Source: a virus
Taxonomy: Duplodnaviria; Caudoviricetes
DNA length: 52,128 bases
Virus record (IMG/VR): IMGVR_UViG_3300034101_005442
Span: 1-52,128 of that record
Direction: 5' to 3' (one strand)
In this document: positions 2,551-52,128 of the stretch, in pieces
How positions within the stretch are numbered: the stretch's first letter is position 1
Layout: every line of letters starts with the position of its first letter
The notes under the pieces: model-generated
The model's database searches: none
The model's input: the letters and a program-made list of their open reading frames with translations, nothing else
Told to the model about the DNA's origin: nothing
Translations under genes and position numbers: made by a program

Positions 2551-5085
2551 TTATCCGCCTAATATAGTTTTAAATTGTGTGAGTGATGATTTTACCCTAA
2601 CTGGTACTCTAGTATTTAGATAATTAATAACAGGATCAGCTTCTGAAAAACCGTTTGAGTTTTCTATACTAATGTCCAAATCTTTTTCCCACCATCCTAA
2701 CCTACTGTTATTAGCAGAATTAAGACATCCTATTCCTACGCTCAAATAATAGTCAAAAGGAAGTTTTGGAAGTGTAAGAGTTCTATTTTCCCAAACATTA
2801 GAACTGCTTGTAAATTGTACACTAATATCTCGGAAGCCAACTCCGGCTGTAACGTTAGCACTATCAAATGTTATTATACTTTCGCTATTATTATGATAAA
2901 GCCCATTGTTATAACCATCAGAATAATGTCTAGCATATATATAAGGATAATTAGTATTGCCACTTGCTGTTTTCACAGAACCTCTGATAAACACCCTACT
3001 ATTAGCAGGAACATATATGTCATTATTAAAACCCATCCATCCGCTTTCATCTCTATCTGGATATATTCTCCATGCTGTCTCATTAAGGTCATAAATTCTC
3101 AATGCTCTTCTATTCCAACTAATATTTTTACCATATTTAAAATTATAGCCATTACAAATAAACTGCTGAGTAAACGCTGACTTAGCGTCCAGGCGGCCTT
3201 GAGCACCGTCTGTTAAATTAACGTTATCAATATATAATCCAAGACCATTATAATTTGTCACATCCCAAGAGTTTCCAAGATAACAATTATTCATAACTGT
3301 CATATTGGTTCGTTCACCATAAGGCCAGGAAACAAAATAATCTATATAACAATTATCTATATAATTATTACCATTTTGATAGACCATAACAAATGGGCGA
3401 CTCAGCATAAATAACATATAGTTTTGTCTAAATTTTGCTGATGTTTCGTACCATTGATTGATAGAAAATCCAGCGTTGGGATTTCTAGTAGCAAAATTAT
3501 ATGCTACTTCTGTGGTAGTACCATACATTCCTTCTAAATATATTTGATCACCATATCTTGCTGCTATATTATTAAAAAATCCATGATCATTGCCATATCG
3601 AGCAAAAGCCCAACTATTAGTATTATAACTAACACAATTCCTAATATTTAAAAAATGATGATCCCACCAAAAACCACAATTGCGATTATTACGTTCTGTC
3701 GGATTTATAACAATGCCATCAAAGTAACTGGTATAACTTGTTCCTATTCCACTTGCTGTAGTATTTTGATAGCTAAAACTACCTCTTAGTCCTATCGCTC
3801 CATAATCAGCGCTATTAGTATTTGCTCCAACATTAATTAAACAATTAGTAATTCTCATTCTTCTAGTATGATTATTAGATAAGTTATTAGAATAGATAAA
3901 ACTTCGTTGGTCAGCACCATGCAGAGTACCTTCTGGAGCTTTTATCTTTGTGTCTCTATTCAGATTAACTACAATTCCACCAACTCCAGCTTTTACGTTT
4001 CTTTGCAATGTGGTAGTTGCAGGAGATGTAAATCCACCAGTCAGAGTTATAACTTTTGTTGTTGTATTAATAGCTGAAATAGTATAATCCATAATATTAT
4101 CCCAGCTAGTAGCATTACTATACTGTGGATCATTAACAGGAACCATGATCAAATCGCCAACACTAAAACCATTAGTATTATTAACAGTAATAGTATTAGT
4201 TCCTTGATTACTATTAGCAGTAACAATAGCAGCTATTCTAAGAACAATATCTCCTGATATATGACTTTTTTCTAACCCTGTTCTATATATAGTTTCTCCT
4301 ATTATGCTTCCTGAAGGAGTACCAGACAATGTTAATAAATTAGTAGCATAATTAATATCCGTTATAGTCAGAATATTTCTATTAGCTCCAGTACCAAAAA
4401 TAATCTTATAGCCAACTCTCATTACACTAGCATCAGAGACTGTTACAGTAGCTCCAGTTGTTGCAGATATAATTGTTGATGGACTAACAAAATGTCGAAA
4501 ATAAATAGTATTACCACTTACATCATGTATCCACATCCCCTCATCGCTTTTTAAGAACTGATAAGCCTTATTAGTATAATCATTTCTATAAACTGTTATC
4601 CAATCACCGGCTGCAAAATTACTAGCATCAACAACACTAAGAGAAGTATCATTATTATTAGCGTTACTCGCCAGGGTAGTTTTAGGGTTAGGATTAGTTC
4701 CTTCTATTTCACAAGTGACATATTGGTGGGCCTGTATTTGTAGTCGGTGTTGTTCAGCATTACTTCCCTTAAATTCTAACAAGCTGCCAGGATCCATTCT
4801 AAAAAATCCAGCACTATTTGTGTTTTCGGTAAACCATGTGGTATAAGAAGCGGTATTGTCAACATAAAGGATCCCATTCATCCTTAGTTTGCCGGTACTT
4901 GTTATTACTAATTTACCTCTAACAAAACTATCATCAAATCCATTTGTTACTCTGCGATCATCATTAATAGTAACAACATGGCCATAATTAACAATGAAAA
5001 TATCAGCATCAACAGGCACAGGATTTCCGCCCCATGTTGCTGTGCTATTAAAATTACCGCTTTGAGTACTAGTTCGTGTTGCCAT
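2551..5085 (-). CDS. Virion protein with G8-like N-terminus and probable parallel beta-helix (tailspike/depolymerase-like)
   Basis: 844 aa. N-terminal STQSGNFNSTATWGG..VP..D..V..GH.VT motif; Asn-rich stacked repeats (NNIAAR, YNFATR, DNCYID, NNCYLG) in the C-terminal half. Confidence 0.55.
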   Translation of the reverse strand: MATRTSTQSGNFNSTATWGGNPVPVDADIFIVNYGHVVTINDDRRVTNGFDDSFVRGKLVITSTGKLRMNGILYVDNTASYTTWFTENTNSAGFFRMDPGSLLEFKGSNAEQHRLQIQAHQYVTCEIEGTNPNPKTTLASNANNNDTSLSVVDASNFAAGDWITVYRNDYTNKAYQFLKSDEGMWIHDVSGNTIYFRHFVSPSTIISATTGATVTVSDASVMRVGYKIIFGTGANRNILTITDINYATNLLTLSGTPSGSIIGETIYRTGLEKSHISGDIVLRIAAIVTANSNQGTNTITVNNTNGFSVGDLIMVPVNDPQYSNATSWDNIMDYTISAINTTTKVITLTGGFTSPATTTLQRNVKAGVGGIVVNLNRDTKIKAPEGTLHGADQRSFIYSNNLSNNHTRRMRITNCLINVGANTNSADYGAIGLRGSFSYQNTTASGIGTSYTSYFDGIVINPTERNNRNCGFWWDHHFLNIRNCVSYNTNSWAFARYGNDHGFFNNIAARYGDQIYLEGMYGTTTEVAYNFATRNPNAGFSINQWYETSAKFRQNYMLFMLSRPFVMVYQNGNNYIDNCYIDYFVSWPYGERTNMTVMNNCYLGNSWDVTNYNGLGLYIDNVNLTDGAQGRLDAKSAFTQQFICNGYNFKYGKNISWNRRALRIYDLNETAWRIYPDRDESGWMGFNNDIYVPANSRVFIRGSVKTASGNTNYPYIYARHYSDGYNNGLYHNNSESIITFDSANVTAGVGFRDISVQFTSSSNVWENRTLTLPKLPFDYYLSVGIGCLNSANNSRLGWWEKDLDISIENSNGFSEADPVINYLNTRVPVRVKSSLTQFKTILGG

Positions 5086-7118: not shown

Positions 7119-10100
7119 TAATTCTCCTTTTCAACAACTAGATGATCAACATCCTTGCGTACTCCAGTTAATGTCCAGCAGAATTGTAGTTCTCCTAAAC
7201 TTTTGGCTCGATCAACCTTTACAATAAATCGGTCATTCTGTAAATCAATCTTATCAATATAAATAGTTTTACCATGTTTAATATTAGTAATTTGAATATT
7301 TAAAGTATCGTCATCGTGGATAAGATCTTTTAAATAAGATGGTAGAGATACTGTGCCAACGCCTTTAATCACCGTTCCTCGTCCTGTTAATCTTACTCCG
7401 TGATACGGACTTTCTAGTGAACCATATTCTAAAGAATGATCTTTTTTAGAAGGATGATCAATTCGGAAACTCTTGGTACTAGCAGCAAAACTACCGTTAA
7501 CTTGAAGCTTATATGTTGGAGTTGTTGTGCCTATGCCAACATTACCATTATTAATAACTCTAACCGCTTCTGTAGCACCATTATTTCCAACTACTAATTT
7601 AATATGATCTGTCGTACCAACATTAGTGGTTGATTTAAGAGTTAAAGAAGATCCTACTAATGTGCCTCCAGCTATACCAGCTGTTGGTCGTAGCTCGTTT
7701 TGTAAGGTCAAAGCATTAATGTCCCAAACACCAACTTGTGTTGATCCAGAAACTGCTTGATAGGTACCTCCTCCGCCAATATGAAAGTAGTGTTGACCAG
7801 TAACATAGTCTGTTATAAATGGGGCACTAATTAGTAATCTATTTTGTCTATAAAATCCATCACTAGTAAATCCAGTGCCACCCAAACTAATTTCTGCACC
7901 ATAGCTTCCATTATATAAAGATAATAATGACCTTGCTGATGTTCCAGCAGAATTATTAAGTATCTGTATACCATTATTAGAATTTGATGCTGGATTAACA
8001 TTTAATGCGTATGATGGAGTAGCTGTTCCTATTCCAACATTTCCATTATTAATTATAGCAATTCTTGATATTGGGGTGGTTGAACCAGTAGGAGCAACCT
8101 CCAAAGATAAATAACCTCCACCAGAAGTATTTGCCGCAGTATTTGGTGCATTTCCACCAAGTATACGAGCCATAATGCCTCTATTTGTAGCATTACCTCT
8201 ATCTCTACTATCAAAATCTATACTAGCAGTGCCTCCCTGATGTCCTCCTGGCCTACTGACTAATAAGTTTATTAATGGATAATTGGGATTAGTACTAGTA
8301 TCTTCTGGACTAGTAATTCTCATACCAGAATGATGGATACCAAATGCATATCCTGCGGTAGAATTAATATTAGAGCTTGATCCAATAGTGGTATTAATGG
8401 TAAGAGAACTTTCGGGAGAAGTTGTTCTTATACCAACATTTCCAGCACTAGTTATTCTTAATCTTTCAGAAGCGTCAGTATCAGCAGATTGAGATGAATT
8501 AGTATAAAATCTTATTGTTCCGTCTGAAGAATAATAATAACTAGAGAGTGCTCCAACGCTATTATGTTTTGGCATTGACCCGCTCAAATAAACATTGTAT
8601 CCTCCAGCAAAACCACCACCACCATCCATTGTTGCAACTCTAGCGAATGCCAAATTATTCAGTCTAAATTCAGTATCTGAAGTAATATATGAAGTAGATC
8701 TTATTACTCCACTAACATGTAGCTTATGTGAAGGAGAGCTTATGCCTATTCCAACATTTCCGTTAGAAGATATTCTCATGTACTCAGACAATGAGGTTGT
8801 TCCACCACCAGCCCAAAATGTTAGAGCATGATTATTGCTAGTGTCTGTTCTATTACTAACTATCCTTGCCCCAGTATATTCTGTACTGGAACTTTTTGTA
8901 ACAAAATCAATGCCAACACCAGCACCAACTCCAACTCCATTAGATCCTGTTAATAATAGTTTTAATGGCCTAACACCACTAGCAAATCCAGCAGTAGTAT
9001 TAGTATATTCTATTGTTGTATTTAAATCATTTGTATCAGTTATATGAACTTTGCTTTGTGGAGTAACTGTTCCAATACCAACATTAGTACCATTATCAAA
9101 AATTAGACTATTACTTAGTCCACTACCACCAGTTCCAAACTTGCTTAAATAATTAGCAGTCCCTACAGGTAGTAATCCGCTTACGCTGCTATTGAAATCT
9201 GTAATATTAGAACTAGTGTGAGTATGACCGCTAATGCTTACCCCAGTACCATTAACAGTTAAATTATTAACGAAATTACCACCAAATGCTGAAATAGAAT
9301 TATCAAATGCTGCAATACTTGGTCCAAAATTATAAGTCTCACTACCTCCAAAATTTATACTTAGCCCTCCACTATCATTTATTACATTAAGTGTTCCTTG
9401 ATTATTAGTAAGATTAATACCATTAACGAAATTATGAATAGCATTAACTGTTCGATTATTATCTATATGTAAGTATTGAGAGTGATCGTCATCACCTAGT
9501 CCGAATAAATTTCCATGATCATTCTGAGTAACTCCAGCAATAGTACTAATTACGGATACTCGTATATCAAGAATACTAAGTAAAGTACATTTAGGAACAT
9601 TTGTATAATCGCTATCACCAGCAAATATTAGTCGATAAAGAGGTTTAACTTCACTTAATGGAAGATTAGTAAGATTAACATCGCTCCAAGAGTTATTACT
9701 CTCAGCCGATCCTTGATTGCTATCTACTCTTTGACCCATAATACTAATTATAGGATCATCAATCTGATTAGTTGCAAGAATCCATACTGCAAAGTATCTT
9801 GTGTGTCCACCGGTGCTAACGTAAGGAATTGTCCAAGTTCCACCAGTTAATAAGTTATATTGTGGCCCATTAACATCATATTTAACAGGATAGTTTGTGG
9901 CGGTATTCTTAACCCACTGACCAGTGCTTCCTTCATGATAATAAACGGGAATTTGAGCAATTGGACTCAACTCTTGACAGAAAGGATCAGAGCTAGAACT
10001 ATCAGTAATATTTATCTCAATATCTTCTTGATAAAGAGTACCATTACCAATTGATATGGTTGCATGACTATTACTACTTCCATTTCCACTAGTAGAGTAA

Positions 10101-23104: not shown

Positions 23105-23366
23105 GTTTTTTACTCGCTACTATTTTTAAAAATACAGATTCGTATATATCTTCTAATCCTTTAATTAGTTTATGATGATATGAACATAAAGTTATACCAT
23201 TATCAGTATTAAATCTTAAACCAATATTATGTGCCCATGTTTTTATATGATGAGCATTAAGTTTTCTTTTAAGAGTACAATTCGGCCATTGACATTTAAA
23301 ATTATCTCTTTTATATACTTCTTGTCTCCATCGTTTGTAACTAGGATCATTAAAATCTCTATTCAT
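23091..23366 (-). CDS. HNH endonuclease (packaging-associated type)
   Basis: WR..V..RD.F.CQ..C, AHHIK.W, LRF..NGITLC..HH; 91 aa, close to the terminase gene. Confidence 0.9.
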   Translation of the reverse strand: MNRDFNDPSYKRWRQEVYKRDNFKCQWPNCTLKRKLNAHHIKTWAHNIGLRFNTDNGITLCSYHHKLIKGLEDIYESVFLKIVASKKHGKS

Positions 23367-24351
23367 GTCTAGTATTCTCTATATCTGAAAAAACCATATC
23401 TTCTACAAGTTGCTCAAATGATATTTTGGGTTGCCATCCTAAAATATTCTTGGCTTTTGTTGAGTCTCCTCTGCAAAACTCAACCTCCATTGGTCGGTAA
23501 AGATTATGGTCAATTTCTATATGATTCAAATAATTTAAATTAACACATTTAAAAGCATGCTCAAGAAAAGATTCAACAGTGTGAGAGTATCCTGTGCTAA
23601 TAACAAAATCATCAGGATTACCATGAGACAGCATTAACCTCATAGCAAGCACATAATCCTTGGCATGACCCCAATCTCTTACAACTTTAATATTTCCTAA
23701 TTTTAATTTTTCAGTTGTTTTTTTGTTAACTAGTTGGCCTATATACTTAGTAATTTTTCTAGTAACAAAATTTTCTCCGCGTCGTGGACTTTCGTGATTA
23801 AATAAAATACCACTAGTAGCATATAGCCCATAAGCTTCTCTGTATATTTGTATCATCCTATGACTAGATAATTTAGAAACAGCATATGGACTTTGTGGTA
23901 AAAATCCAGTATTTTCGTTTTGGTATTTTTCTCCATCATCATTTAAAATATAATTAGATCCAAACATTTCGCTTGTACTAGCTTGATAAAATCTAGTTGT
24001 TGATGAAAACTTTCTAATATTTTCTAATATATTAATTACTCCAATTGTATTAATTTCAAATGTTGTTGTTGGTTGTTTGAAGCTTGTAGCAACATGACTT
24101 TGTGCTGCCAAATTGTAAAAATGATGTGGTCTGTGTTTAGTTATAATGTCAACACAATCTGAAGGATCAGTAATATCAAATTCTTGCAATATTAATTTTT
24201 TATTATCAAGTAAATGTTTAATCCTTTGGAAATTAGAGTTACTGCTTCTTCTATATAATCCTACAATATTATATCCACTATTTATTAATAGTTCAGCTAA
24301 ATAACTTCCGTCCTGTCCAGTTATTCCTGTTATGGCTGCTGTTTTAGTCAT
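23359..24351 (-). CDS. gmd: GDP-mannose 4,6-dehydratase
   Basis: ITGITGQDGSYLAE, YNLAAQSHV, FYQASTSEMFG, SPYAVSK, GILFNHESPRRG.FVTRKIT and RDWGHAKDYV, all hallmark Gmd motifs. Confidence 0.97.
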   Translation of the reverse strand: MTKTAAITGITGQDGSYLAELLINSGYNIVGLYRRSSNSNFQRIKHLLDNKKLILQEFDITDPSDCVDIITKHRPHHFYNLAAQSHVATSFKQPTTTFEINTIGVINILENIRKFSSTTRFYQASTSEMFGSNYILNDDGEKYQNENTGFLPQSPYAVSKLSSHRMIQIYREAYGLYATSGILFNHESPRRGENFVTRKITKYIGQLVNKKTTEKLKLGNIKVVRDWGHAKDYVLAMRLMLSHGNPDDFVISTGYSHTVESFLEHAFKCVNLNYLNHIEIDHNLYRPMEVEFCRGDSTKAKNILGWQPKISFEQLVEDMVFSDIENTRHE

Positions 24352-25160
24352 TGTATACTATCTGGTGTTAAAAATGGTTGATCTATAATACCATCTTGAT
24401 ATTGATGATATTCTTCTAATTTCTTTTTATTTTTTTCTGTTGCGATAGAGAGTATCTCCATTTCTCTACCTTCTTTTTCTCTGATGGTTTCGTCTTCTAA
24501 CATACGTATTAATCCTATCCAAGAACTTTTACCATCTTCTATTCTTTTTATTCTTTGCTCTCTGGTAGCTTTAAGGTCCTTGCTAATTTTTTGTTGTTCA
24601 TTTAATAATTTAGTATATTCATTTGTATAATTTGCTATGCTATTTCTTGCAAAACTTAATTGTGTCTCTAAGTTGGCTAATCTTGGTATATCTCTTTGAT
24701 CTTCTGGTTTTTCATATTCTTTGTCTACTAATTGTTGTAATTTATCAGTTTCGGCAATGTGTCTTTTTCTTTCTTTCATACTGCGATTAATAAGAATATC
24801 TATAGTGATAAATTGTTTAATCTGAAGTTCTTCTGCTGGTAAAACGTCTTCCCTAAACTGCTGGATTAGACCTATCCATGTATCTTCAAAATATGCTAAT
24901 TCTCCAGTATCACTATCAAATTGTCTAGTAATTTCGTGCCAAAAAGTTTTTGTATGTAATTTCCTTTTTAGTATCTCAAGGTCTTTAGCGTTCTCACTAG
25001 CTGTTATATTATTTTCTTTTATATATCTATTTATAGGATCAATATTTCTATTTAGATTTTCAGCTATTTCCTCAACAGATAGAACTATAATATTTTCTCT
25101 TATAAATTTTTCTTCTTCTAGACTTAGTTGTCCTCGTTTTTTGGGAATATTTCTTGACAT
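24348..25160 (-). CDS. Helical protein with N-terminal HTH-like segment and coiled coil; candidate terminase small subunit
   Basis: LS.EE..FI..N..LSVEEIAE.LNR N-terminus followed by a long coiled coil; upstream of terL in the same operon. The function is inference only. Confidence 0.45.
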   Translation of the reverse strand: MSRNIPKKRGQLSLEEEKFIRENIIVLSVEEIAENLNRNIDPINRYIKENNITASENAKDLEILKRKLHTKTFWHEITRQFDSDTGELAYFEDTWIGLIQQFREDVLPAEELQIKQFITIDILINRSMKERKRHIAETDKLQQLVDKEYEKPEDQRDIPRLANLETQLSFARNSIANYTNEYTKLLNEQQKISKDLKATREQRIKRIEDGKSSWIGLIRMLEDETIREKEGREMEILSIATEKNKKKLEEYHQYQDGIIDQPFLTPDSIQ

Positions 25161-25762
25161 TTATCCTCTCCTATTATTAGCTCTATATGACTTTGTAATT
25201 TTTTAAGTTGCTGTTTAGGAATTTTTTCTCCGTGCTTAAGTCTTAAATAGCTTTCTCTAAATTCTGGTTCTATATTTTCGTCTAATAATTTTATTATCTC
25301 ATTATTCTGCATTTTAGAGTCAAAATTTTTATTATTACTAATATCATACTCTATATACGATGGTTGCATAATATTCTTTTTGGCAATATTTCGAGTTGCC
25401 CATGTGGAATATAAATCACAATCATCTTTGTTTGCATATTTAGAACATTGATTTTTTGAGACTTTATAGTTAGGATCGTATAGTGGACATGATAAACAAG
25501 GAATATCTGGTCTTTGATAGTTATTTCTTTTGTAATTAAACAATCTGTTTCTTACATGCGTCCATAAGAAATTTTCTAATGGTCTTGTATTATCATATTT
25601 TTCTAAACCTTCCAAAGCAAAAATAGCCGCTTGCTGTTTCATATCTTCAATATCGTGATATCCAAAACGAAATTTATGGGCTAGTCTTTTGCCTATATTA
25701 TCTAATACTCTTAAAAAATCTTCTTCTGAAACTTTATTATCTATTTTTTTCTTTTTGCTCAT
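25124..25762 (-). CDS. Phage-encoded RNA polymerase sigma-70-family factor (candidate late sigma)
   Basis: Region-2-like DIEDMKQQAAIFALEGLEKYD..LENFLWTHVRNRLFNYKR, followed by a four-Cys insert. Confidence 0.75.
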   Translation of the reverse strand: MSKKKKIDNKVSEEDFLRVLDNIGKRLAHKFRFGYHDIEDMKQQAAIFALEGLEKYDNTRPLENFLWTHVRNRLFNYKRNNYQRPDIPCLSCPLYDPNYKVSKNQCSKYANKDDCDLYSTWATRNIAKKNIMQPSYIEYDISNNKNFDSKMQNNEIIKLLDENIEPEFRESYLRLKHGEKIPKQQLKKLQSHIELIIGEDKCQEIFPKNEDN

Positions 25763-26603: not shown

Positions 26604-29141
26604 TCAGTATCGTACTGTTATATTAGGAAAATATAAAATTTTATTTGTACCTTCGTGTAGATCATGAGGAAAAGATCCATTAGATAATGTTGGTATACTA
26701 TTATCTTTAATCCATTGTGTAACTTGTTCTACTATATTACCTGATCTCTGTACATTACCTTCTGTTAAATAACTTGCTATGGCACCACATACCTGAGGAC
26801 TAGCCATACTTGTTCCGCTTAATTTTGACATACCGAATCTATTGTCCTTTGGATGATTACAAAAAAAAGAGTTACCACCAAATGACTGGGCATTATAAAA
26901 AGCAGATGATAAGATTTGACTACCAGGAGCATATATATCTATTCTTTTTCCTGAATTACTAAAAGAAGATTTAATCTCAGGACAACATTCATAAGACATA
27001 GAACCAACAGTAATAACTCCACTAGCTGATCCTGGACTACTTCCTTGAAATGGAAAAAAATTATAGATATTATCTCCCCATGGCTGTCCAGGATATAGAT
27101 TTATATAATTAGTTCCTGGAAGGAAACCTGCAAATGTTGTACTGTCTTCATATGGGATCGATGGATTTTCTTTTTGTAGATTACATAAATTTGCTTCTAT
27201 GGTGAAATTATAATTATCAGAAGTAGGAATTCGTATATCATAGAAACTATTACCAGCAGCTGCAACAACCACAACATCTGCTTCTATCATGTCCTCTATT
27301 AATGAATCCATCACTATGTCTCTGGCAGGAGCCTGGTAAACATAAGTAGGAAAAAATAATCCCCATGTTGGTTCTCCAGGAATTGATATTTTATAAAAAA
27401 TAATTCCCCAATTATCTAAAAATTCTTCGCTAAATCCACCTCCATTTGTTATATAAACTTGTGGTGGAGAAGTAAACCATCCATAAGATGGATCAGCCAT
27501 AGAAGGATCTTGTACCCACAATGGTATAATACTAGAAACTTTTCCTCCATCTACTGTTGTTCTAGCTGCTGGCCCTGATATTCCAGAATGAGGTCCATAT
27601 GAATATCTAAATGATATATTAGGGATAGAATTATATTGTCCTCCTAATAAAGTATATTTAAAACTAGTTGAATTAATGTTAGTCTTTTTTGTAGCTATAA
27701 CATATAGACCATTAACAATCCTAGAATAGTCATCAGGTCCATTAAGAGAGCCAATACCACAATAATTATCATATTCTCCATTATCATTTGAAATGGTCCA
27801 TAATGCATCTTTAACACAATCTCCTCCACTTAATATAATAAACGGAGGATCATTAAATATTTTAAAGATGTCTCTCGCAATCCCAGGAGCACTATTTAGT
27901 ATTTGTATGGATTTAATAAAATTAGAACCAATTATTGCTGTTGCTGTTGCTGTTGTTCCAGAAACAGGGTCATCAAAAGTTATAGTTGGTGGCTGATCAT
28001 ATCCACTACCCCATTCTGTTATTTTGATACTATCTATATTGCCATTAGAGTTAACCGTACAGATACCAGATGCTGTTACTCCTGCCAAAGGCTGAGAAAA
28101 TATAATATTTGGTGGACTATTTTGACTATATCCAGACCCTATATCAGTAACTGTTATCTCCTTTACTGTTCCGCTAGCCATTATTACTAAGGCCTCATCT
28201 CCACCACCACCATTATATGATATATCTGGATTATTAGTATAACCAGATCCAGAATTAACAATATTAAACGATTGAATTTGACCATTTTGGTTTATTACAG
28301 CCTCTGCTACGGCTTGTTCTGTTTCTCTTGGAGCAACATATTCTATTCCGCTGCCTATAATTTTAGTAATATATCTGATATCGTAAAGAGGATAACTAAC
28401 ACCATAGCTATGATTAGTAATTGTTGGTCTAGAATTTCCTTTTGATAAATGCCAATTTGTTATAGCTGATAGATATTGATAGCCAAGTGGGCCTGTATAA
28501 GGAGAAATATTATATATTTTACTGTTTTTCGCCCAACCTAATGTTGTTCCACATGCTGTTCCAGCAACATGTAATCCGTGAGGATTATTGTCTCTTTGAG
28601 ATACTGATTCTAAAATAGCTTCATATGGATATGATGATGGTTCATTAACATATGCATTCCAGTTTACCAACTCTACTCTAGAATTGCCATTCATGTCTAA
28701 TAATTCTGGATGTATATCTACTTCATCAAAACTCATACCTGGTTTTCCTGTAATTATTCCATCCACAATAACAACATCAACACCACTACCATCAGGAATA
28801 TTTTCTATATTTGCTTGTTGAGATAGTGCTTGTATTTTAATATTGTCTGTATTTGATTGTGATTGAAATAATATTTTTGATGGTAATAGACTTTCAGAAG
28901 TAAATACGGCTGGTTTTAAAATAGTTGGTGCTGTAATTTTTATATCGCTAACTCTATTATCATTTTTTAATAGAGAAGCCTCTTCATCGGTTAATTCTGA
29001 AAATAAACATCTTGAATATTTAATATCTTCAATATTACATTCTCTGTTAGGAACATACTCTAATGATGAAATTCCTATAAGTTCAGATTGAAATTGTTCT
29101 TTGTCAGAAATATTTTTTAAAACTATAGTATATTTTTTCAT
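26604..29141 (-). CDS. Subtilisin-family (S8) serine protease with inserted virion-type repeats
   Basis: Triad motifs [28 protein letters not shown]; oxyanion AAAGN; insert of G.I.SI.I..GSGY..P.I.F repeats. Confidence 0.9.
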
Positions 29142-46571: not shown

Positions 46572-46579
46572 AGTACACC
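46572..46579 (-). promoter_or_regulatory. Candidate late promoter motif GGTGTACT
   Basis: 43 nt upstream of 46531. Confidence 0.55.
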
Positions 46580-47967
46580 TATGATTTCTTTTTGTTTTTT
46601 GATTTTGATATGTGATCACAGGTATACATATTATGCTTAGTATTTTGTATTACAAATCCATTTTCAGGATATCTATAAGTTGTTGTTAATGGACTTTCTG
46701 ATGCTCCAGGAATTATTTCTTCATATCCAAAATGGGTTAACATTTTAATACTTAATGGAGTAATAACTTGTTGTATGTCTGGATCAAAATATGGAACCAT
46801 AAGATCATTACCTATTCCTGGTAATATCTGACTTTTAGGACACATTCCGTCGGCAGGAATATCAGAACATGCTCCAGGTCTCCATGGATATTTACATTCA
46901 CAAGGTTTACTATATTGTATAGGGAAAGAATACCACGACCAGTGTGCTCCAATTACTGTTTGTAATGGAACTGGTCTTAATGAATATGCTGGATCATAGG
47001 ATATTCTACCAGCTGACTCATAGATACTACCCATTCCAGGATAATAATCAGTATTTAAAGAACTAGCGTCATACCATTCATATGCTCCAATTTTAATATA
47101 AGGTTCTGTATTTACTGTATTAGTATCAGTATACTCAGGATCCCAATAGAATCCTATTCCTAAACCATGACCTAGCTCATGTAGCATCACTCCTTCCCAT
47201 TCGGCTTGTGTATAATCATTTTGATAATGAGTATTAATATATAAGTCTATGGATGTTGTATTCCATCTTAAATAAGGAGCAGACGAACTTAATTGTTTAT
47301 GAGCTGATATTCCACAAGCAGCAATTGCTCCATGTAAATCTGTTCCTTGTAAATTATCAATATAAATTGCATTAATTGTGATACCTTTCCAGTTTGATCC
47401 TAACTCAGATCGTATGCTAGCAATTACGCTATTATTCATTCGTAGGAATTTTGACCATCTATTACATGCGTTGACAAGAGGAGTTAAATATGGTGCTGGA
47501 ACTCCTGTTCCTATAGGTACTCCGTTTTTATTTAGTCTGGGTACTGATGAAAAAGAATCAGTATCAAATAGTTTCACATTATTTTCTACTAGCCATGTTA
47601 CTTCAGAAGAGGTAGAAGTCCAATTATAAACATATGATATTCCTGTAGATTGTTCAGTATAGTATGTTGTTAATTCCAATCGACATCTAAATTTTCTTCC
47701 ACTTTTGGCTAGTGTTGATTTGCTGGTAATGAAAGTATCTGTTAAAGAAGCTCTTTTACCCGCATAATCTTTAGGATTTAAATTTCTAGTATCTTTAGTT
47801 ATGTCTCTAACAATTGTCCATGATGATGATCCTGGAAGTTGTCGTTCCCATAGGTATCGAGCTGTCCAAGTTGTTCCTAGAATTCGTCCTGTGATCGTAG
47901 AAACAAATGTTGCTTTAATACCTTCTTTAAGAGTTACAGATGATGGTAAAACAGTATTATTTATCAT
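46579..47967 (-). CDS. Ig-like domain plus leishmanolysin-like (metzincin) zinc metalloprotease
   Basis: HELGHGLGIG (HExxH), downstream GAHW (third ligand), DLMVPY Met-turn, IT.LSI..L..GY. Confidence 0.8.
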   Translation of the reverse strand: MINNTVLPSSVTLKEGIKATFVSTITGRILGTTWTARYLWERQLPGSSSWTIVRDITKDTRNLNPKDYAGKRASLTDTFITSKSTLAKSGRKFRCRLELTTYYTEQSTGISYVYNWTSTSSEVTWLVENNVKLFDTDSFSSVPRLNKNGVPIGTGVPAPYLTPLVNACNRWSKFLRMNNSVIASIRSELGSNWKGITINAIYIDNLQGTDLHGAIAACGISAHKQLSSSAPYLRWNTTSIDLYINTHYQNDYTQAEWEGVMLHELGHGLGIGFYWDPEYTDTNTVNTEPYIKIGAYEWYDASSLNTDYYPGMGSIYESAGRISYDPAYSLRPVPLQTVIGAHWSWYSFPIQYSKPCECKYPWRPGACSDIPADGMCPKSQILPGIGNDLMVPYFDPDIQQVITPLSIKMLTHFGYEEIIPGASESPLTTTYRYPENGFVIQNTKHNMYTCDHISKSKNKKKS

Positions 47968-49010: not shown

Positions 49011-49232
49011 ATTATAAATGAAAATGTGTTGCTGTTAGGCTCTTGTCTCTTGGGAATAGAAACACAAGATCTAGAAACATGATAAATAATGGGGTAAATA
49101 GGGGAGTTTAGGTGATACATTTTGATTTATTGAGTGCTTATTGTGTTTGGATGTCCTTGGGGTTTTGAGAAAAATCTGGAAATGATCGATAAAAACAGAA
49201 AAACCCCCTCTTATGTTTTACGGTTATTCTAC

Positions 49233-49410
49233 CCCGCAAATTTGACGTAAAGCCTTACGAGATAATGACTTACAACGAGGGAGCATAGCAAATGGTGTGC
49301 CAAAGAATAATATATTTTATGGTATGGTATTTGCTCATGAAAAAAATCTCAAAAAAAACATTTGTACACTATTGACGCCTAAAGAATCTTTGGTATAATG
49401 TCGATATAAG
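49233..49410 (+). repeat. Regulatory cassette copy 1 (left-truncated)
   Basis: One 11-7-11 palindrome (49246-49274); sigma-54 sites at 49287-49302 (minus strand, TGGCACACCATTTGCT) and 49320-49335 (plus); TTGACG 49372 / TATAAT 49394; TAAA-N16-GTCGATAT. Confidence 0.85.
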
Positions 49411-49445
49411 AAGTAAGAGAGAAAAAGAAAAAAAAGGAAAAGAAC

Positions 49446-49613
49446 ATGACATACTTCATTCAGATTTTCGATGCTTGGGATTGTGAGTTGGATTTCATCG
49501 GCCCGTTCAACACTGAGAACGAAGCACATGAGGCCGGTTGGAGCAAGTGGGAAGGTGACGATAACGCCTATGGTAGCCGAATCATCAAAAGGCTTCCCGC
49601 TTCGACTCACTGA
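49446..49613 (+). CDS. 55-aa acidic protein (not in ORF track), paralogue of 50214..50378
   Basis: MTYFIQIFDAWDCELDFIGPFNTENEAHEAGWSKWEGDDNAYGSRIIKRLPASTH; AAGGAA RBS; downstream of the cassette promoter. Confidence 0.85.
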   Translation: MTYFIQIFDAWDCELDFIGPFNTENEAHEAGWSKWEGDDNAYGSRIIKRLPASTH

Positions 49614-49624
49614 AAAATATTCTC

Positions 49625-49660
49625 TAAGGGCTTGACGAACGATTGCCGATAACGTACACT
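49625..49660 (+). promoter_or_regulatory. Overlapping sigma-70 and sigma-28-like promoter
   Basis: TTGACG(49632)-N17-TACACT(49655), with TAAG(49625)-N16-GCCGATAA(49645). Confidence 0.7.
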
Positions 49661-49690
49661 AGAATCATCACAAGGAAAAAGGAAAGAATC

Positions 49691-49933
49691 ATGAGCAACG
49701 ATTTTATCTACGACATGAGCGAAATCAACGAAGAGAACATGTTCAAGGCTTGGGAAGAAATGGTAGCCGAAGATGGTAGCATCTGGGAAACGGGATACGA
49801 TGATGATACCGATTACATTCCGGGCCTTGACGATGGCGAAGGATACGACCCGATCATGGGCGATGGCGAAGGATTCGATGAAACGGACGATGGATGGCTG
49901 GACGATTTCCAGGGCGAAGAGGATTTTGCCTAG
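49691..49933 (+). CDS. 80-aa extremely acidic protein (candidate DNA mimic)
   Basis: Start re-called to ATG 49691 after AAGGAA; 29 D/E against 1 K and 0 R; internal DGEG(Y/F)D repeat. Confidence 0.8.
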   Translation: MSNDFIYDMSEINEENMFKAWEEMVAEDGSIWETGYDDDTDYIPGLDDGEGYDPIMGDGEGFDETDDGWLDDFQGEEDFA

Positions 49934-49942
49934 GGGATACAT

Positions 49943-50183
49943 CCCCCACTAGGGGGAAAGGCTTGACGTAAACCCTTGCTACATAAGCACTTACGTCAAA
50001 TTTTCGGCCGAAAAATCGTCGTAAACCCTTATGCCACAACGACTTACATCAAATGCCCACAGCAAATGCTATGCCGAAAATAATATATTCTATGGTATGA
50101 TATTTGCTGAACATAACCTTACGATATTGTAAGGAAACTTTTTTGTTGACGATTCAAGATACCATGGTATAATGTCGATATAA
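49943..50183 (+). repeat. Regulatory cassette copy 2 (complete)
   Basis: CCCCCACTAGGGGG; palindromes at 49967 and 50020; TTTTCGGCCGAAAA; sigma-54 sites 50061-50076 (minus) and 50093-50108 (plus); CCTTAC-N6-GTAAGG 50117-50134; TTGACG 50146 / TATAAT 50168; TCAA-N16-GTCGATAT. Confidence 0.9.
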
Positions 50184-50213
50184 AGAGAAAAGGAAAAGAA
50201 AAAGGAAAATAAA

Positions 50214-50378
50214 ATGACATACTTTGCTCAAATCGTAGACGCTTGGGATTGTGAACTAGACTTCCTTGGCCCATTCTATACTGAGGAACAGGCGACCGCC
50301 GCCGCTTTCGACAAGTGGGACGGTGAGGATGGATGTAGGGTAAATATCATCAAAAGACTTCCGGCTTTTTCTCACTGA
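50214..50378 (+). CDS. 54-aa acidic protein (not in ORF track), paralogue of 49446..49613
   Basis: MTYFAQIVDAWDCELDFLGPFYTEEQATAAAFDKWDGEDGCRVNIIKRLPAFSH; many synonymous differences from the paralogue show it is coding. Confidence 0.85.
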   Translation: MTYFAQIVDAWDCELDFLGPFYTEEQATAAAFDKWDGEDGCRVNIIKRLPAFSH

Positions 50379-50398
50379 AAAAATATTTTCTAGTGGGG

Positions 50399-50426
50399 TT
50401 GACGTAGGATTGCCGATAAGTATACT
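50399..50426 (+). promoter_or_regulatory. Sigma-70 promoter with embedded GCCGATAA
   Basis: TTGACG(50399)-N16-TATACT(50421); GCCGATAA at 50412; homologous to the 49625 promoter, but the sigma-28 -35 element is poor. Confidence 0.65.
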
Positions 50427-50443
50427 AGGGAAAAGGAAAAGAA

Positions 50444-50638
50444 ATGACACTGAATACAGAAATCTCGACGAGTTATGATGGTAAGCGGTATACGGGCTTG
50501 GTTGTGGAAATCAAGATGGTACAGAATCGTGAGTTGATCACGATCATGATTGAAGATGATTCGCGGAATGATGGCATAGGGTATCGTAGCCTTTATGCCG
50601 ATAAGATGAGCGAAACATCCGAAAACCTTTTCGCATAA
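50444..50638 (+). CDS. 64-aa small beta-barrel-like (SH3/Sm-like) protein, paralogue of 51209..51406
   Basis: Shared Y..G..(Y/F)TG..V.....L.TI...GYRS.Y.DK; AAGGAA RBS. The fold is inference. Confidence 0.75.
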   Translation: MTLNTEISTSYDGKRYTGLVVEIKMVQNRELITIMIEDDSRNDGIGYRSLYADKMSETSENLFA

Positions 50639-50646
50639 GGAAAAAA

Positions 50647-50967
50647 ATGAATAGTTTTGCAAGATTAAATCGTATTGGAATGGAATCGAATGCTACTAAA
50701 AATAAGGTAAGATACTTGCGTGAAAAATATAATCTTGGATATGATATGCAACCCAAGGAAAAAACAATGTCCGTTTCCGAAATGATTTGCAAACTAGAAT
50801 CCCATGGATTGATCGTGCAGCGGTTGGAGCACGATAATGGTACGCTACACGTTGACGGCTATCATCCTCCCCATTGTAAGGGGCTGCCCGATTGGCTGTA
50901 TGATTGCCCCGGTTGGGGGGTATCGTCATGCGGGGCTTCTAGGGTTTTCATGTTCAAGGTGGGCTAA
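50647..50967 (+). CDS. Hypothetical protein (possible second start at MSVSEM, 50767)
   Basis: AAGGAAAA RBS precedes both ATG 50647 and the in-frame ATG 50767. Confidence 0.6.
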   Translation: MNSFARLNRIGMESNATKNKVRYLREKYNLGYDMQPKEKTMSVSEMICKLESHGLIVQRLEHDNGTLHVDGYHPPHCKGLPDWLYDCPGWGVSSCGASRVFMFKVG

Positions 50968-51188
50968 CCCCCCACTAGGGGTACACACTCGACGTAAACC
51001 CTTGCTGTATAAGCACTTACGTCAAATTTTCGGCCGCAAAATCGTCGTAAACCCTTATGGCATAACGACTTACGACGAATCGACATAGCAAACGATATGC
51101 CAAAGAATAATATATTCTCTGAAAAAAATAAAAAAAATAAAAGATTTTGCTTGCAACCTAAAGATGAGCCTGTATAATGCCGATATAG
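50968..51188 (+). repeat. Regulatory cassette copy 3 (plus-strand sigma-54 arm replaced by A-tracts)
   Basis: Palindromes at 50993 and 51046; sigma-54 site 51087-51102 (minus, TGGCATATCGTTTGCT); TTGCAA 51151 / TATAAT 51173; TAAA(51159)-N16-GCCGATAT(51179). Confidence 0.9.
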
Positions 51189-51208
51189 AAAGAACAGGAG
51201 AAAGAAAA

Positions 51209-51406
51209 ATGGAAATGAAAATCGGAAACGTTGCCAAGGTCGAATATGCTACGGGTGAGAAGTTTACGGGTGAAATCGTAAAGGTTCGCACCATGTCCGA
51301 CAATCGTATTCTGTTCACGATCCACGATGAAACCGTAGGGTATCGTTCGATGTATACCGACAAGTGTGTGTCTCTGGAAACGCTGGAACTACAGCCCCTT
51401 GATTGA
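51209..51406 (+). CDS. 65-aa small beta-barrel-like protein, paralogue of 50444..50638
   Basis: Start re-called to ATG 51209 after AGGAG; FTGEIV..LFTI..GYRSMYTDK. Confidence 0.8.
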   Translation: MEMKIGNVAKVEYATGEKFTGEIVKVRTMSDNRILFTIHDETVGYRSMYTDKCVSLETLELQPLD

Positions 51407-51411
51407 GGGGG

Positions 51412-51440
51412 TTGTGCCTATAAAAAAAGTTTGCTACACT
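51412..51440 (+). promoter_or_regulatory. Sigma-70-like promoter
   Basis: TTGTGC-N17-TACACT upstream of ATG 51473. Confidence 0.5.
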
Positions 51441-51472
51441 ACATCATCATCCCAACCCATAGGAAAACAACA

Positions 51473-51799
51473 ATGACCACTAGCCCTATCCTTCGTGAGT
51501 TTCGCCGCGGCATCATCAACTGGTTTGAGGGTATCGCAATCCCTCACCAGCCTAGCGTTGCCGATGGTGTGTATACGCCGATTCGCAGCGAAAAGGTGAT
51601 GAAGTTCAATCGTAAGGCTCTCCGCCAAATCGGAAAGGCTAAGGCTGAAAAGGTTGATCCCCGCTATAGTGGGGGTGATGATCGTATGATCGTAAAGGTT
51701 GGAAAGCCCGGCTCGGCTGAACGTAAGGCAGCATTAGCAGAACAGTATGCCGCTATTCTCGCCTGCGGAGAGGAAGTATCCCCCTTTTCGGAGGGGTAA
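51473..51799 (+). CDS. 108-aa basic hypothetical protein
   Basis: Start re-called to ATG 51473 after AGGAAAA; ends just before cassette copy 4. Confidence 0.75.
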   Translation: MTTSPILREFRRGIINWFEGIAIPHQPSVADGVYTPIRSEKVMKFNRKALRQIGKAKAEKVDPRYSGGDDRMIVKVGKPGSAERKAALAEQYAAILACGEEVSPFSEG

Positions 51800-51808
51800 G
51801 GGTATATA

Positions 51809-52050
51809 CCCCCATTAGTGGCACACACTTGACGTAAACCCTTGCTGCATAAGCACTTACGTCAAATTTTCGGCCGCAAAATCGTCGTAAACCCTTACTG
51901 TATAAGCACTTACGTCGAATGACTATAGCAAACGATATGCCGAAGAATAACTTATTCTATGGTATAATATTTGCTCTAGGAAACCTTACGATATTGTAAG
52001 TTTTTTTTTGCTTGCAATCTAAAGAATGGTCTGTATAATGTCGATAGATA
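51809..52050 (+). repeat. Regulatory cassette copy 4 (complete)
   Basis: Palindromes at 51833 and 51886; sigma-54 sites 51927-51942 (minus) and 51960-51975 (plus); CCTTACGATATTGTAAG at 51984; TTGCAA 52012 / TATAAT 52034; TAAA-N16-GTCGATAG. Confidence 0.9.
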
Positions 52051-52072
52051 AGAAAGAAAGAGAGAAAGAGAA

Positions 52073-52128
52073 ATGAACAGCCTCGATAAGATTCTGGCAT
52101 CTATGCGGTCTGGCAAGTATGGTAGCGT
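52073..52128 (+). CDS. Hypothetical protein, 5' end (runs off window)
   Basis: MNSLDKILASMRSGKYGS..., following cassette copy 4 and a purine-only leader. Confidence 0.65.
   Translation, partial: MNSLDKILASMRSGKYGS

Follow-up and report, generated by a model that had tools for sequence, protein, structure and literature searches.

What reads the seven related 16-nt words that lie close together at the right end of a lake phage sequence, and to what end? The sequence, called the window below, is the whole 52,128-nt virus record IMGVR_UViG_3300034101_005442. It is a 52-kb fragment of an uncultured lake phage of ~150 kb: the CheckV completeness of the record is 34%, and ~150 kb is the size of related records rated complete. 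An original prediction, made from the letters alone, had placed back-to-back -24/-12 sites for sigma-54 (RpoN), an alternative sigma factor, between positions 49287 and 51975. Judged from the pattern of the words, sigma-54 is their most likely reader, and we put at about even the chance that all seven are docking sites for the host sigma-54 holoenzyme within a repeated boundary cassette of the early region. The output of such docking sites may be that of a conditional promoter, a parked polymerase or a decoy.

Motif and spacing in the window and in related phages

A degenerate pattern covering the seven words occurs exactly seven times in the 52128 bases of the window, where 0.05 matches would be expected, and none of 100 shuffles reached that number. 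The words lie where the original prediction had located them, and its description of their form held as well: GG and TTTGCT are invariant in 7/7 sites, and three minus/plus pairs diverge across A/T-rich spacers of 17, 16 and 17 nt. All seven sites keep GG-N10-GC of the sigma-54 -24/-12 consensus to which they had been compared, with GG and GC one helical turn apart in the TGGCAC-N5-TTGCW geometry, and all seven are intergenic. The motif and its strict geometry are direct observations. A looser scan of the whole window (TGGCAC-N5-TTGCT, at most two mismatches) gave 18 matches where 9.0 would be expected; outside 49287-51975 there are 11, all of which break GG or GC, and good sites are therefore confined to the last 3 kb. 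One further TGGCAC, at 51819-51824, forms the G-arm of a stem-loop in the last cassette copy (copy D in Table 1) and has no TTGC one turn downstream; it is a lone -24-like word and no full site. An attempt to read TTTGCT as a MotA box or as a site of a phage sigma factor was rejected, since it leaves the GG one turn upstream unexplained.

Relatives were recruited with a conserved 108-aa protein encoded at 51473-51799, which gave 109 confirmed matches and 77 distinct viral loci. Altogether, these loci and the window hold 409 occurrences of a loose form of the motif (202 plus, 207 minus) as 199 distinct 16-mers, clustered in the 7-13 kb stretch of the loci where the early cassettes lie. The commonest forms, TGGCACGATATTTGCT (26) and TGGCATGATATTTGCT (20), resemble the textbook consensus more closely than the sites of the window do. 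Spacing and the number of sites per source were counted in 67 non-redundant related sources (1.11 Mb). There, TGGCAY-Nx-TTGCW occurs 203 times at x=5 and 1, 1, 4, 2, 1 and 0 times at x=2, 3, 4, 6, 7 and 8, respectively, while the reversed control motif has no occurrence. In the logo of 299 unique sites, GG is preceded by T in 81% and followed by C in 81%, then by Y and R; TTGC is preceded by T in 80%, and T follows GC in 66%. These free positions follow the sigma-54 consensus.

The bases between GG and TTGC vary freely, also between close relatives. The counterpart of site D-minus in the close relative L096 differs at 4 of 16 positions, while GG and TTTGC are intact. Conservation in the family is likewise observed directly: at least one site is present in 63 of the 67 sources and at least three in 40, with none in four. 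The complete relative G001 (153 kb) has all seven of its strict sites within 4 kb, and the other complete relatives have none (G003), one each (G002 and G004) or five, two of which are in the early region (G005).

DNA sites or RNA stem-loops

The inverted pairs could also be stem-loops in plus-strand early transcripts, where they would be processed by RNase III, stabilise the RNA or end transcription. For the three window pairs, the plus-strand RNA folds at -19.1, -12.8 and -16.1 kcal/mol (z-scores -5.4, -2.8 and -4.7), in all three cases better than the minus strand, and spacers that are A-rich and then T-rich add pairs. Mismatches compatible with G-U pairing favour the plus strand by 110 to 58 in 53 unique pairs.

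However, the two arms do not covary. Twenty inverted pairs with spacers of 15-18 nt have a covariation score of 0.124; shuffling gives 0.162 on average, and in 492 of 500 shuffles the value equals or exceeds that of the observed pairs. Pairing occupies 83.8% of cells in these pairs and 86.0% when partners are shuffled among sequences; the arms therefore pair only because both carry the motif. Both sides are altered in 2 of 16 pairs, and the middle positions are mostly mismatched in the 53 unique pairs. No U-run was seen after the plus arm of the window pairs, and a stem leaves the strict GG-N10-GC geometry unexplained. The sites are also independent of a partner arm, as is directly seen from the 148 of 313 unique sites that lack a complementary 16-mer within 80 nt (controls 212/310), with an unchanged logo, and from the one-armed copy C in the window. 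We rejected the G-U asymmetry as a mark of a plus-strand stem: position 7 is G in 66% of solo plus sites and A in 63% of solo minus sites, and since these strand-specific base preferences recur in partnerless sites, the bias is no argument for pairing. It is well supported by these comparisons that the sites are double-stranded DNA read by a protein, as the original prediction had argued from the letters. An RNA stem is not supported, and we consider it highly improbable.

Enhancer-type promoters, activators and the host

The strongest sign that the family really uses sigma-54 is a complete enhancer-type cassette that is present in relatives. In 10 aligned cassettes (for example, L011 9031-9366; others are in L008, L012, L017, L018, L063, L071 and L073), three invariant palindromic boxes of the GCAAAATG type lie ~95-175 nt upstream of an invariant TGGCAC-N5-TTGCTCT, which is followed by a conserved leader and, 25-33 nt after the motif, by an ATG; the downstream genes are unrelated. 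The L011-type cassette also holds a small GC stem and an A-rich stretch between boxes and site. An exact 13-mer of the box occurs in 21 of 87 loci. Plus sites with an ATG 25-33 nt downstream form a separate class that has no sigma-70 promoter. By a hand count on printed sequences, a sigma-54 start 12 nt past GC and the start predicted from the -10 hexamer in sigma-70 cassettes would be no more than ~2 nt apart within the same shared leader. This arrangement fits one option raised by the original prediction, namely that the phage borrows a host enhancer protein.

Bacterial enhancer-dependent -24/-12 promoters include divergent pairs around one enhancer, such as zraP/zraSR. The phage sites share with bacterial sigma-54 promoters the TGGCAC-N5-TTGCW sequence and its strict spacing and, in the relatives, three upstream boxes and a start in a defined leader. 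In contrast, the window sites stand back to back, 16-17 bp apart, with no enhancer between them; the leftward ones face no gene, a sigma-70 promoter intervenes rightward, and no activator gene was found. The small-RNA qrr promoters of Vibrio, which combine LuxO boxes with sigma-54, offer a second parallel, with a box upstream of a sigma-54 promoter (in the relatives) and multi-copy units. The TTGCA-N3-TGCAA-like boxes of the relatives resemble the LuxO-type box, although they are absent from the window.

Among phages, the only precedent for a sigma-54 promoter in the available parts of the literature searched is Pseudomonas phage YuA, for which a sigma-54-like promoter region, P015, is described with reference to earlier promoter-trap work by Ceyssens et al. 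2008 (PMC10914365). YuA is comparable as a virulent phage without its own RNA polymerase that has sigma-54-like beside sigma-70-like promoters, but the accessible text of this source names one such region (PMC10914365), whereas here at least seven sites fall within 3 kb, half of them antisense, in repeated cassettes and family-wide. Back-to-back or palindrome-facing sigma-54 sites in phages were not described in the literature searched, from which subscription journals were largely absent.

A number of observations, to which the folding energies given above belong, weigh against docking of host sigma-54. All three plus sites of the window are the weaker TGGTAT variant, and a full sigma-70 promoter intervenes between them and their genes. 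In the family, a plus-strand gene is found within 500 nt for 130 of the 148 unique plus sites, in 96 of these 130 cases with a sigma-70 promoter between site and gene. Orientation is skewed to the minus strand (171 minus, 124 plus), and only 9 of 173 minus sites in the family have a minus-strand gene within 500 nt; the four in the window face no gene. Loci L019, L020 and L028 carry arrays of the form minus(8)plus(3)minus(16)plus, in which not all sites can be occupied simultaneously. None of the relatives' enhancer boxes is present in the window as far as the record reaches; there, twin palindromes lie ~60-140 nt upstream of the plus sites. The four siteless relatives among the 67 do have cassettes, and the sites are therefore dispensable.

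The same direction is taken by the search for sigma-54 machinery. The original prediction had proposed to look for a phage protein with the Sigma54_activat domain: none was found in the window, and the weak PF00158 matches in three of five complete relatives are all RuvB and were rejected as a phage activator. The Sigma54_DBD domain was found in none of the five. G001 encodes replication and nucleotide enzymes and two small sigma-70-like proteins, and no RNA polymerase. The host label is discordant as well: the 108-aa early protein occurs on seven contigs of metagenome-assembled genomes that are labelled as six different lineages (Burkholderiaceae, Gammaproteobacteria, Planctomycetota, Methylococcaceae, Flavobacteriaceae and Planktophila, beside a plain 'bacterium'), and therefore no host can be named. 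One of these labels, Planktophila, is an actinobacterium that to our knowledge has no sigma-54. A scan of five of the metagenome-assembled genomes for the enhancer box gave 1-3 one-mismatch matches each, which carries no information on the host. Finally, the public-run listing has no RNA runs for the window DNA; at least part of the window's early region is present there in 24 runs from 21 studies, nearly all labelled as lake water or freshwater metagenomes.

Several of these points are what one would see if the holoenzyme bound and never fired, with the sites serving either as a sponge, which with the growing amount of phage DNA would deprive host promoters of sigma-54, or as the seat of parked complexes that insulate neighbouring transcription units. 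Orientation is untied to genes, the sites are dense and overlapping, and no activator gene was found in the window or in the complete relatives. In E. coli, 135 sigma-54 sites were mapped, many of which are intragenic, antisense or inactive, and the sites bound in vivo include TGGTAT- and GGCAT-type ones (PMC4591121). Most of them appear transcriptionally inactive; as in the phages, sites with a good consensus lie far from genes or antisense to them, and bound holoenzyme need not fire (PMC4591121). The difference is that the phage sites are intergenic and clustered, keep set distances to palindromes and show conservation within a phage family. Moreover, within the accessible text of that study intragenic sigma-54 binding leaves overlapping genes unaffected, with no roadblock effect found (PMC4591121). 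A sponge would need neither the fixed 12-14 nt to the palindromes nor the 9 nt to the small inverted repeat that we describe below, and non-firing sites accord poorly with the complete enhancer-type promoter before genes in relatives, with the four siteless sources and with the 0-1 strict sites of G002-G004. We give binding that never leads to firing a small chance.

The repeated cassette and its leftward sites

Two features of the locus had been missed in the original prediction. The first is that the sites belong to a larger cassette that is repeated, with a strong predicted sigma-70 promoter in every copy. Four copies of this ~250-nt cassette separate small early genes at the right end of the window (Table 1). 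Each begins at the gene end with a C5/G5 stem-loop, followed by twin 37-nt palindromes around a GGCC-centred A/T palindrome and by the sigma-54-type site or pair; then come the small inverted repeat CCTTAC-N6-GTAAGG (in two copies), a sigma-70 promoter, a purine-rich leader and the ATG. In the promoter scan, the sigma-70 promoters of the four copies are near-consensus (10-11 of 12 matches). From the end of a plus site it is 36-37 nt to the -35 hexamer and 97-110 nt to the ATG. The small inverted repeat was rejected as a terminator, given 3 terminator-like sites against 2.7 expected.

The second feature is that the leftward sites face twin palindromes, not genes. From minus site to palindrome core the distance is 13 nt in 4/4 window sites. 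In the family, the palindrome unit starts 12-14 nt from the site in 48 of 169 minus sites and at 8-9 nt in 12, and none lies within 60 nt in 82; for plus sites, the small inverted repeat follows at 8-10 nt in 17 of 147. The distances to these neighbours persist although the sequence of the spacers varies. The half-sites of the palindromes take two forms, GTAAAC and GTAAGT; the counts of their four combinations (143, 98, 57 and 42) are close to what the frequencies of the single forms predict. Since the two forms combine independently, we rejected the twin palindromes as minus-strand RNA hairpins transcribed from the leftward sites; they look like protein sites.

In a subgroup of relatives (L041, L058, L060, L068, L078, L080 and L084), leftward sites are almost the sole orientation, and TGCCA-N3-4-TGGCA palindromes, beginning 1-5 nt past the site, replace the twins. 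At L078 8300-8470 and 9560-9720, arrays of CTGCCA-N3-4-TGGCAG are interleaved with up to three tandem leftward sites. At L058 ~3090-3134 and L068 ~7690-7726 (both minus strand), in the leftmost cassette, a C5-loop-G5-T6 terminator lies 8-9 nt past the leftward site and on its strand, and any transcript from such a site would be very short.

This subgroup, whose palindromes share TGGCA with the sites interleaved among them, is one ground for assigning the sites to some other protein with sequence specificity. An early protein of the phage might, for instance, recognise TGSCA-like half-sites one turn apart, and the likeness to the sigma-54 consensus would then be coincidental. The setting among other protein-site-like palindromes and the lack of phage-encoded sigma-54 machinery in our searches point the same way. 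Yet coincidence would have to extend to the free positions of the sigma-54 consensus and to the strict N5, as well as to the right spacing of the relatives' motif from three enhancer-like boxes and a shared leader. No candidate protein was found either: the conserved 108-aa protein has no Pfam match, and its fold model is of low confidence (pLDDT 66.7, pTM 0.28), too poor for a structure search. We regard another protein as unlikely.

Returning to sigma-54, the leftward sites have no gene before them and their -12 end lies 13 nt from the palindromes; if docking occurs, they therefore most likely act together with a palindrome binder. We favour such an interplay between a parked holoenzyme and the binder because a decoy needs no such spacing and a promoter needs something to transcribe. 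A bolder version, which we hold to be speculative and rather unlikely, is that the leftward site with its twin palindromes 13 nt from the -12 element is a new phage control device, in which the palindrome binder beside the parked sigma-54 polymerase either switches it on without a conventional AAA+ enhancer-binding protein or locks it.

The cassettes are evidently, from comparison of sequences, junctions of gene shuffling. L096, whose protein is 94% identical, shares the whole of cassette D and then diverges completely past the leader into a different gene; between window 51440-52128 and L096 1-760, the gene and the whole cassette are common, with 88% column identity. Gene order also differs from that of L011. 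A likeness exists to the promoter-early stem-loop (PeSL) elements of T4-type phages, short cassettes repeated among small early genes, where gene units are shuffled and which consist of a G/C-tract stem-loop, an A/T-rich stretch and a near-consensus sigma-70 promoter (PMC2839356). Here too there are four copies with stem-loops and promoters of 10-11/12 matches, and the similarity to L096 ends past the leader. In contrast, the available parts of the PeSL descriptions contain no sigma-54 sites or twin palindromes (PMC2839356), and the polymerase of the present phage is of the DnaE type, while no T4-type hallmark appeared among the scanned proteins.

Shuffling raises the alternative that the sites are functionless passengers of a cassette that spreads by recombination or gene conversion among early genes. 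Family cassettes are indeed mosaic, with sites, small inverted repeat and palindromes in many combinations, and the stop of the L096 similarity and the gene order unlike that of L011 would be expected of such spread. Hitch-hiking, however, would conserve whole stretches, whereas here GG and TTGC persist around five freely varying bases. We consider the sites very unlikely to be passengers.

All large genes of the window are on the minus strand, from 189 to 49120, and include those for tail fibre and structural proteins and the large terminase; from ~49440 on, the genes are small, on the plus strand and with no Pfam matches. Two pairs of the small genes are paralogous, 49446-49613 with 50214-50378 and 50444-50638 with 51209-51406 (repeat families D3 and D10), and gene units therefore were duplicated together with cassettes.

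Table 1. Positions of the sites, cassette parts and small early genes in the window
Feature	Position	Strand	Remarks
Cassette copy A	49150..49448	+	junction of minus-strand late and plus-strand early genes; four-copy alignment, repeat families D1-D7
A, palindrome unit (one)	49242-49278		
Site A-minus	49287..49302	-	exact TGGCAC-N5-TTGCT; palindrome unit leftwards after 13 nt
Site A-plus	49320..49335	+	TGGTAT variant; back-to-back with A-minus; 36 nt upstream of sigma-70 -35 hexamer, 110 nt before ATG
A, sigma-70 promoter	49372-49399		followed by purine-rich leader
A, ATG	49446		
Cassette copy B	49934..50216	+	repeat analysis (I1), four-copy alignment, promoter scan
B, C5/G5 stem-loop	49943-49956		
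B, twin palindromes	49963-49999, 50017-50052		flank GGCC-centred A/T palindrome
Site B-minus	50061..50076	-	CGGCAT variant; palindrome core at 13 nt
Site B-plus	50093..50108	+	TGGTAT variant; pair with B-minus; 37 nt before -35 hexamer; 9 nt before CTTAC core of small inverted repeat
B, small inverted repeat CCTTAC-N6-GTAAGG	50117-50134		
B, sigma-70 promoter	50146-50173		
B, ATG	50214		
Cassette copy C	50960..51212	+	repeat analysis (I9), four-copy alignment, promoter scan
C, C6/G4 stem-loop	50968-50981		
C, twin palindromes	50988-51025, 51042-51078		
Site C-minus	51087..51102	-	TGGCAT variant; solo, plus arm absent; place of plus partner taken by A-rich stretch (four-copy alignment)
C, sigma-70 promoter	51151-51178		
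C, ATG	51209		
Cassette copy D	51800..52076	+	repeat analysis (I2), four-copy alignment, promoter scan, comparison with L096
D, stem-loop	51809-51821		
D, twin palindromes	51828-51865, 51882-51918		
Site D-minus	51927..51942	-	CGGCAT variant
Site D-plus	51960..51975	+	TGGTAT variant; pair with D-minus; 36 nt before -35 hexamer; 9 nt before CTTAC core of small inverted repeat
D, small inverted repeat	51984-52000		
D, sigma-70 promoter	52012-52039		
D, ATG	52073		gene cut by record end
Small early genes between cassettes	49446-49613, 49691-49933, 50214-50378, 50444-50638, 50647-50967, 51209-51406, 51473-51799, 52073-end	+	no Pfam match

Elsewhere in the window, a 212-aa protein (25124-25762, minus strand) has a weak match to sigma-70 region 2 (Pfam 23.2 bits, cut-off 24) and a PHROG match to a sigma factor (E 1.9e-06), and G001 encodes a 186-aa protein with sigma-70 region 4; the two may jointly make up a split sigma factor with which the phage reads late genes. 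The minus-strand late genes at 23359-24351, 26604-29141 and 46579-47967 encode three further proteins of note: one product is GDP-mannose 4,6-dehydratase-like (by a PHROG match and the Pfam match of a relative's homologue), an 845-aa protein has a subtilisin-like end and virion-protein repeats, and a 462-aa protein has the HELGH zinc-protease motif. We found no DNA matches to 49200-52128 in GenBank phages, no match of an exact cassette 20-mer in viral contigs, no Rfam match at gathering scores and no gene in a tRNA scan.

We infer the following course for sigma-54 binding and firing and for the role of the palindromes. The holoenzyme would bind each site as a closed complex and stay silent unless an activator acts; as no recognisable AAA+ activator of the phage was found, this would be a host enhancer-binding protein or a factor on the neighbouring palindromes. 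If a rightward site fired, the small gene would also be read by a conditional transcript with its start upstream of the constitutive sigma-70 early promoter. At leftward sites, 13 nt would separate the polymerase's -12 end from the twin palindromes, and the outcome may be a regulatory or architectural complex with the palindrome binder, or a short antisense transcript.

Sigma-54 transcription is regarded as a host affair that requires a dedicated ATP-driven activator. In this family, which appears in ~109 viral contigs, sites of the sigma-54 type are kept in the first few kb of early DNA, and those that point away from genes, at a fixed distance from palindromes, do not fit a textbook promoter. 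Their family-wide retention suggests that a host signal is sensed through a host activator, or that the parked polymerase has some other use. If the leftward sites and palindromes do form a control device, it would link infection by a large lake phage family with early expression or with shutdown of the host sigma-54 regulon.

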